A DNA stretch of 64,000 nucleotides from Macrostomum lignano (taxonomy: Eukaryota). Position 1 is the first letter of the stretch, and every line of letters starts with the position of its first letter. The notes under the pieces are model-generated. The model saw only the letters and a program-made list of their open reading frames with translations. It did not search any database and was not told the origin of the DNA. Shown piece after piece: positions 9,474 through 10,512 of the stretch. Location: contig NIVC01001116.1 of the NCBI GenBank assembly GCA_002269645.1, forward strand, positions 1 through 64,000, read 5' to 3'. Both the position numbers and the translations under genes were made by a program.

Positions 9474-10103
9474 ATGGAAACTAAAAAGATTTGTAGTCGA
9501 TGTAAAGAAGAGAAACCAATGACTAAAGATTTTTTTAGATGGAGAAATGATTCAAAAAAATTTAGAAATGATTGTCGATCTTGTGAGAAAGTTATATCAA
9601 AACTGTGGAATAAAAACAATAAAGAATATATAAAAAATAAATATCACACTGATGAAAATTACAAACTTATTATCACCTCACGAAATAGAATAAATCAACT
9701 ATTAAAATCAAATAATGCTCGAAAAAATAATCATACTATTGATTACCTTGGTTGCTCAATTGAATTCTTTATTGATTGGTTAAATTTCACAAAACATTAT
9801 TATGTTCCAAAAGACTATGGTGGTGCTTTACATATTGATCATTTTATTCCTGCTTCTTCATTTAATTACAAAGACGAAGATCATATGAAAAAGTCTGAAC
9901 ATTGGACAAATAAAAGATACTTAGCTGCTATTGATAATAAAACTAAATTTGTTAAACAACCAACAATTGAAGAATTTGCAAAACAATTGGTGCTATCATG
10001 TATTTTTAAGGCTATAAAAAATGAGCAATCATGCGACGCATGCGAACCAAAGGTTCGATCGGACGAAGTCCGCGTTCCTTCGGAACGATCAATTAGTATT
10101 TGA
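9474..10103 (+). CDS. Free-standing HNH endonuclease of the giant-virus homing-endonuclease type with N-terminal zinc ribbon
   Basis: CSRC...CRSC; DYLGCSIE...YGGALHIDHFIPASSF...HWTN...AIDNKTK follows the LGCS...HIDH.IP...NL..L...DN..K pattern. Confidence 0.8.
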   Translation: METKKICSRCKEEKPMTKDFFRWRNDSKKFRNDCRSCEKVISKLWNKNNKEYIKNKYHTDENYKLIITSRNRINQLLKSNNARKNNHTIDYLGCSIEFFIDWLNFTKHYYVPKDYGGALHIDHFIPASSFNYKDEDHMKKSEHWTNKRYLAAIDNKTKFVKQPTIEEFAKQLVLSCIFKAIKNEQSCDACEPKVRSDEVRVPSERSISI

Positions 10104-10209
10104 AGGAGGATTTTTAGATGTTCAAAAAGGATTAACAAGCTTACCACCAATATTTACTACTGGGAGGTATACGGGTGAGCTACACCTACCATCAATGAAC
10201 TTCACAGGT
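10021..10209 (+). CDS. PLA2-integrase ORF, exon 1 (parvovirus-type PLA2 N-terminus)
   Basis: GGFLDVQK...GELHLPSMNFTG ends exactly at the U of a group I 5' splice site; the unspliced frame stops at TGA 10222-10224. Confidence 0.85.
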
Positions 10210-10512
10210 TATCCCGTGGCCTGAGTGAGGAAGGCAATGTCCTTGCTAGTCACTATTTGTGGCGACATCTCCAAATTGCGTGAAACCCGTCATACAGCTT
10301 CAAGTACCACTTAAATTGAGAAATCTTTTGAAGGAACAGAGGTAACTCCTCTTCCCAAAGGTAAAAAGCTTGAAGACATGGTGGCAATGCGCAGCCAAGC
10401 TCCTAAGTATTTTAAATATAAGGAGAAGGTTCAGAGAGCAGACGGAGATGGGCGGTAATTATCGCCGCTTAAGGTGTGCTCCAGCCTCTTTCGAAAGATT
10501 GAGGGTAAACTA
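10210..10512 (+). ncRNA. Group I intron, IC1-like, 303 nt, no internal ORF
   Basis: P1 CAGGU/GCCUG with U.G at the splice site; P3 CATCTCC 10266-72 / GGAGATG 10444-50; P AAATTGCGTGAAA; Q GCGCAGCCAAGCTCCTAAG; R GTTCAGAGAGCAGACG; S CTTAAGGTGTGCTCC; P7 fully paired with compensatory changes; P5abc with A-rich bulge and GAAA/GTAA loops; P9 GAAA hairpin. Removal restores NFTGPGTRL in frame. Confidence 0.93.

Follow-up and report, generated by a model that had tools for sequence, protein, structure and literature searches.

Group I intron, alternating nucleases and GGNCC avoidance in a Polinton family of Macrostomum lignano

Known systems and the locus

Homing endonucleases are usually held to need long targets, and restriction enzymes to need a methylase. 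In the cyanophage S-PM2, collaborative homing is described for the nuclease F-CphI and the ORF-less psbA intron (PMC6083498). I-Ssp6803I is described as a PD-(D/E)XK homing endonuclease that reads 23 bp (PMC3384342). In protist Polinton-like viruses, RF00028 introns of ~300–380 nt are reported from a short gene that precedes the capsid gene, and no endonuclease is assigned to them (PMC12220804). Nuclear group I introns are described as confined to rDNA (PMC3679873, PMC9223047). Two accounts (PMC11296320 and bioRxiv 2023.08.22.554363) mention collaborative homing or HNH domains in Polintons, and not a system of an Eco47II-like nuclease, an intron and a purged site. A literature search, mostly outside subscription journals and covering main texts without supplements, found no intron-encoded Eco47II-family nuclease.

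The window is a stretch of 64,000 nucleotides from Macrostomum lignano (contig NIVC01001116.1, forward strand). Its first 12.5 kb comprise the right-hand portion of a Polinton/Maverick element, with an integrase (rve), a weak packaging-ATPase match (Pox_A32), and a terminal repeat (Table 1). Polymerase B (PF03175) lies ~10 kb from 13 family loci. Two unrelated polymerase-B types are apparently used by the family (L224 513–3737 versus L352–L371 and L225), and both are GGNCC-free. The initial annotation described an intact 209-aa HNH ORF that overlaps the 5' end of the PLA2 gene and stops about 106 nt before the intron. This layout is confirmed, with an overlap of 83 nt (PLA2 ATG at 10021) and a distance of 106 nt from the HNH stop to the intron start. 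Short hairpin-like insertions of ~30 nt are variably present in exon 1 (window 10027–10090) and in introns (333-nt forms).

Table 1. Coordinates of the Polinton copy and its nuclease slot in the window
Feature	Position	Strand	Remarks
Polinton copy, right-hand part	1..12551		no GGNCC; no Gly-Pro dipeptide in ATG ORFs of at least 100 aa
Conserved 223-aa gene, upstream edge of nuclease slot	8775..9446	+	
Free-standing HNH-type nuclease ORF, 209 aa, intact	9474..10103	+	N-terminal CxxC-CxxC, DH..N..N core
PLA2-integrase exon 1	10021..10209	+	ends on Gly codon of G-P-G loop
ORF-less group I intron, type A, 303 nt	10210..10512	+	splits GGT^CC (GGNCC site); U-G pair in P1
PLA2-integrase exon 2	10513..11661	+	remainder of the PLA2-like domain, joined to a retroviral-type integrase; Pfam rve E 1.6e-7, Phospholip_A2_4 E 0.022
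Right terminal repeat	12245..12551		matches far ends of other copies

The window intron matches Rfam RF00028 with 64.2 bits (E 4.9e-16; curated score 50); it was missed by the Rfam 'gathering' scan of the whole window and found in a separate scan. Its core P3–P7 structure scores above the RF00028 curated score, and a U-G pair is present at the 5' splice site. The longest stop-to-stop frame wholly inside the intron is 52 aa, so the intron has no endonuclease of its own, as had been stated at the outset. The boundaries ACAGGT|...|CCCGGC are set by three natural intronless copies, which bear out the junction ACAGGT^CCCGGC first proposed. A 3' splice site at 10503, the Rfam end, is ruled out since the intronless copies and AG/CU pairing give 10512. 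A spliceosomal reading of the junction is also ruled out, as no GT-AG cut keeps the frame. A junction-pattern search returned 29 stretches, none with this intron.

The last base of the window intron is A and not the terminal G of group I introns. Among the type A introns (L001–L135), 79 of 107 end in A and 28 in G, and all 24 complete introns of the small elements described below end in G. The A-ending of most type A introns may impair splicing. Among the assembled contigs of four of the 22 RNA runs on record, no joint across the intron is seen, a result that speaks neither for nor against splicing. The P7 G-binding pair looks canonical despite this ending in 79/107 type A introns. A second intron, type B, of 324–328 nt is present at the same site in L039 (2159–2484) and 23 other loci; the Rfam scan did not detect it in L039. 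Downstream of the type B intron, exon 2 apparently begins Gly-Ala-Gly-Leu rather than Gly-Pro-Gly. Insertions are also found within introns, of ~6.7 kb in L123 (1818–8552) and ~0.8 kb in L119.

HNH nuclease and intron across family copies

In the 764-Mb genome, a search with exon 2 yielded 510 candidates, of which 150 were scored (134 close and 16 distant), and 134 distinct close-family loci were examined (L001–L135, with L028 dropped as a duplicate of L123). The nuclease slot upstream of PLA2 holds HNH at 96 loci (remnants only at four) and another nuclease at 37, and is lost at one. The ORF at the 37 loci is unrelated to HNH and is 160–170 aa long, broken in some copies. A third occupant is an ORF of 153–155 aa, weakly like the upstream gene and followed by an HNH remnant (L114 1472–1939, L126 1436–1897). 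The HNH search of the genome gave 128 matches. All of the 13 further HNH places are in the same slot; the junction is reached in nine of them, each with the intron. HNH never lies inside an intron in the copies examined in this genome.

The HNH and the intron had been proposed as a collaborative homing pair, and their co-occurrence across the 134 loci does not support this. The intron is present at 93 of the 96 HNH loci and at all 37 other-nuclease loci, so HNH presence is independent of the intron (Fisher p 0.56, from counts across copies that are related and hence not independent). All three intronless copies bear HNH, two with an intact ORF and one with a frameshifted ORF; the difference between 3/96 and 0/37 intronless is not significant. 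Slot state shows little association with flanking SNPs (mean Cramer's V at most 0.26, maximum 0.48). The linkage set comprises 113 distinct loci, 122 having been kept after the removal of 13 incomplete, remnant or duplicate ones, and the SNP linkage analysis of these 113 loci found no co-conversion tract of HNH and intron. The pattern of co-occurrence and the near lack of slot linkage imply that slot and intron reassort freely and that HNH and intron do not travel as a pair.

The HNH assignment is based on the PHROG 'endonuclease VII' match (E 5.5e-11) and the invariant DH..N..N residues; the ORF has no match in Pfam. D122, H123, N146, N155 and four cysteines are invariant in 13/13 aligned HNH sequences. 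The crude dN/dS is 0.48 for HNH versus 0.06 for exon 2, and HNH appears to be under purifying selection. The predicted HNH model is poor, with pLDDT <50 over the nuclease part. HNH belongs to a large viral family. The search with the HNH alignment gave 2,976 matches, compared to one in the single-sequence search. In the comparison with giant-virus HNH families suggested at the outset, relatives (29% identity, E 1e-11) lie inside group I introns of capsid genes. A crude motif scan flagged 2 of 80 viral HNH loci, and both were confirmed as family members inside group I introns of giant-virus capsid genes; the Rfam scan of 10 of the 80 loci found no group I intron in those 10. The position of these family members makes a homing role for HNH plausible. 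The giant-virus capsid genes L319 and L320 contain one to three group I introns each, some with HNH ORFs of the same family. At another viral locus, a GOLLD RNA (L267 3623–4030) directly adjoins an HNH relative.

That the HNH itself recognises a long, allele-specific target at the intronless PLA2 junction, cuts there and mobilises the intron along with its own gene is nevertheless unlikely. This reading draws on the 106-nt distance between HNH and intron, the invariant catalytic residues and dN/dS, and the relatives in capsid-gene introns. Moreover, exon diversity climbs toward the junction and peaks there, which leaves room for allele-specific cutting by HNH, and in the two intact intronless copies the HNH alleles belong to clusters of their own. 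Against this reading, HNH occurs in every intronless copy and is missing from 37 copies with the intron, a single HNH cluster is found with three intron forms, and the co-conversion tract is absent. The small elements, in addition, gain the intron with the Eco47II-like nuclease described below, and their loci have no HNH match.

HNH may instead be a working viral gene or neutral cargo, with a role in packaging or DNA degradation, that is swapped by recombination without any homing. Such a role would agree with the apparent purifying selection and with the unrelated third ORF in the slot of 2 copies, and packaging or restriction roles are suggested for HNH genes of Polinton-like viruses (PMC12220804). 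However, HNH is dispensable, being absent from 37 copies. Its alleles fall into 12 clusters, 55–88% alike, and differ by up to 45%, whereas exon 2 is 89–100% identical among intact copies, and such a pattern is typical of conflict. The explanation by viral function or cargo is rather improbable. A short avoided word as the HNH target was ruled out, as no short word besides GGNCC is avoided comparably.

Eco47II-like nuclease and the avoidance of GGNCC

The other slot nuclease matches Pfam RE_Eco47II with E 4e-5 and 23.8 bits, under the cut-off of 25.9. The profile search with this protein gave 296 homologues; 43 of the 47 scanned match RE_Eco47II, and two of the 47 are fused to C5 methylases. 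The PDB sequence search with the protein gave nothing significant, and the IMG/VR scans for it and for PLA2 found no relatives. Its structural model has a pLDDT of 91.9, and the best fold match is EcoO109I (E 2.3e-4, TM 0.70, Foldseek alone), so that the protein is predicted to have the type II PD-(D/E)XK fold. EcoO109I is described as cutting RG^GNCCY (PMC3089450), and for an Eco47II homologue the predicted site is GGNCC (PMC10305163). The Polinton nuclease is likewise predicted to cut GGNCC, with the avoidance of this site as an indirect sign.

The Eco47II-like gene is seen in two positions, ~110 nt upstream of the intron and inside it. In 25/25 small elements, these being the best 25 matches to the L177 version, a type A intron contains the ORF and occupies the same junction. 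An unrelated JGI metagenome contig (L216) has the same intron-encoded layout with 54% protein identity, and in 6 of 9 outside homologues the tail resembles the intron core. The small elements are ~3 kb long and hold just the PLA2-integrase gene (L136–L150, L171–L210); the nuclease-bearing intron is polymorphic among them. In L144, exon 1 and the start of the intron are stranded. Terminal repeats of the small elements were sought and not confirmed. The methylase search was limited to two families: PF00145 (C5) gave 12 matches in the genome, none on family contigs, and PF01555 (N4/N6) gave none. No cognate methylase of these two families is thus found beside the nuclease on family contigs.

The intron inserts between Gly and Pro codons, which together always spell GGNCC. 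Positions 1–12400 of the window contain no GGNCC where 13.7 would be expected, and GGNCC ranks lowest among the 256 xxNxx words. The single-copy Poisson probability of this loss is ~1e-6, and this is the fair figure because the copies are related. Gly-Pro dipeptides are also missing from the window element (0 versus 4.1 expected), and the last GGNCC is retained as forced by the protein code (Gly-Pro). All 17 intron-bearing stretches have no GGNCC in the parts aligned to the window element, while all three intronless copies have GGNCC at the junction, one with an extra site. In four of the 20 compared stretches, GGNCC is present in segments without alignment to the window element. The non-aligned segments of L159, L163 and L167 share one word with GGNCC, which occurs there together with its reverse complement; these are possibly the ends of an inserted transposon. 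The shared parts of left-hand stretches are free of the site in 8/8.

Among the nuclease-bearing small elements, 22 of 25 are without GGNCC, with four sites in total versus ~96 expected; the stretches at intronless small elements have at least one in 14/14. GGNCC is mildly low outside the Polinton family too. The host part of the window has 81 sites versus 115.5 expected (ratio 0.70), and nine stretches of other polymerase-B families have 38 versus 65.6 (ratio 0.58), none with zero. That GGNCC was lost to an outside nuclease, the Eco47II-like protein having evolved a longer, ordinary homing-type target, is very improbable: known homing endonucleases are reported to read 14–30 bp, which avoids toxicity (PMC3384342), and the mild depletion in other Polinton families fits, but the loss in small elements tracks the nuclease, and the protein is just 158–170 aa long without an added DNA-binding domain.

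Proposed system and comparison with known systems

Since the element is purged of GGNCC and the nuclease of sister copies is predicted to cut this site, that nuclease and not HNH is likely the real partner of the intron. The initial idea, in which an intron interrupts the target of a neighbouring nuclease, thus fits the Polinton family, with the enzyme being the Eco47II-like protein instead of HNH. The explanation that we consider probable is that the intron splits the only GGNCC kept by the family and so protects it against the Eco47II-like nuclease of sister copies, while HNH is an independent selfish cassette and leaves the junction uncut. During infection, the Eco47II-like enzyme would attack the GGNCC sites of competing or intronless elements, perhaps also those of host DNA, and repair from an intron-bearing copy would spread the intron. 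Self-immunity of the carrier would consist of site purging and the intron over the last GGNCC. The HNH cassette has likely invaded the nuclease slot, displacing the Eco47II-like gene, and would ride on the immunity; HNH copies presumably retain both intron and purge in order to withstand the nuclease encoded by sister copies. The least certain part, at somewhat less than even odds, is that HNH would act as a free-standing homing endonuclease and propagate its own cassette by way of a long target within or next to the slot. A system of nuclease, intron and purge is well supported as judged from sequence. A 5-bp cutter should damage host DNA, which counts against this explanation, and on its own it does not explain the rise of diversity toward the junction.

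A broader proposal, whose chances look evenly balanced, is a restriction system that works without a methylase inside a eukaryotic provirus. A 5-bp type II enzyme would double as the homing endonuclease of an intron and as a weapon in conflicts among Polintons, and the carrier would be immune because ~19 kb are purged of the site and a ribozyme covers the last one. Intron-encoded and free-standing stages of the nuclease would coexist, and HNH copies would be immune free-riders. If true, a short-site enzyme does homing, and immunity is achieved by genome recoding and an intron. There would also be a selective reason to keep a group I intron in a nuclear protein gene, two states of one nuclease, within and outside the intron, would be found side by side, and Polintons in Macrostomum lignano would meet and fight as replicating DNA.

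The locus resembles several known systems and differs from each. As in the F-CphI system, a free-standing nuclease adjoins a group I intron that has no ORF and interrupts the target. In contrast, two unrelated nucleases alternate in the Polintons, the fitting one is of restriction type with a predicted 5-bp site, and the element is purged. The Polinton HNH has DHFIP with a central Asn, unlike the DHHRN family of F-CphI and Endo VII, in which DHDH is flanked by CX2-4C and CX2C and the central Asn is lacking. The HNH of giant-virus capsid introns belongs to the same family, but it is intron-encoded there and free-standing in all Polinton copies examined. The RF00028 introns of protist Polinton-like viruses also reside in Polinton-like elements, whereas here the intron interrupts the PLA2-integrase gene and has a nuclease associated with it. 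I-Ssp6803I likewise has a restriction-enzyme fold coded within a group I intron; the Polinton protein, however, groups with type II enzymes of the Eco47II family and seems to retain a short site. With type II restriction-modification systems (Eco47II family; EcoO109I), it shares a sub-threshold family match, the fold and the ID..ELK core. In contrast to these systems, no methylase of the two families sought is found on the Polinton contigs, and immunity is apparently achieved by site loss and the intron.
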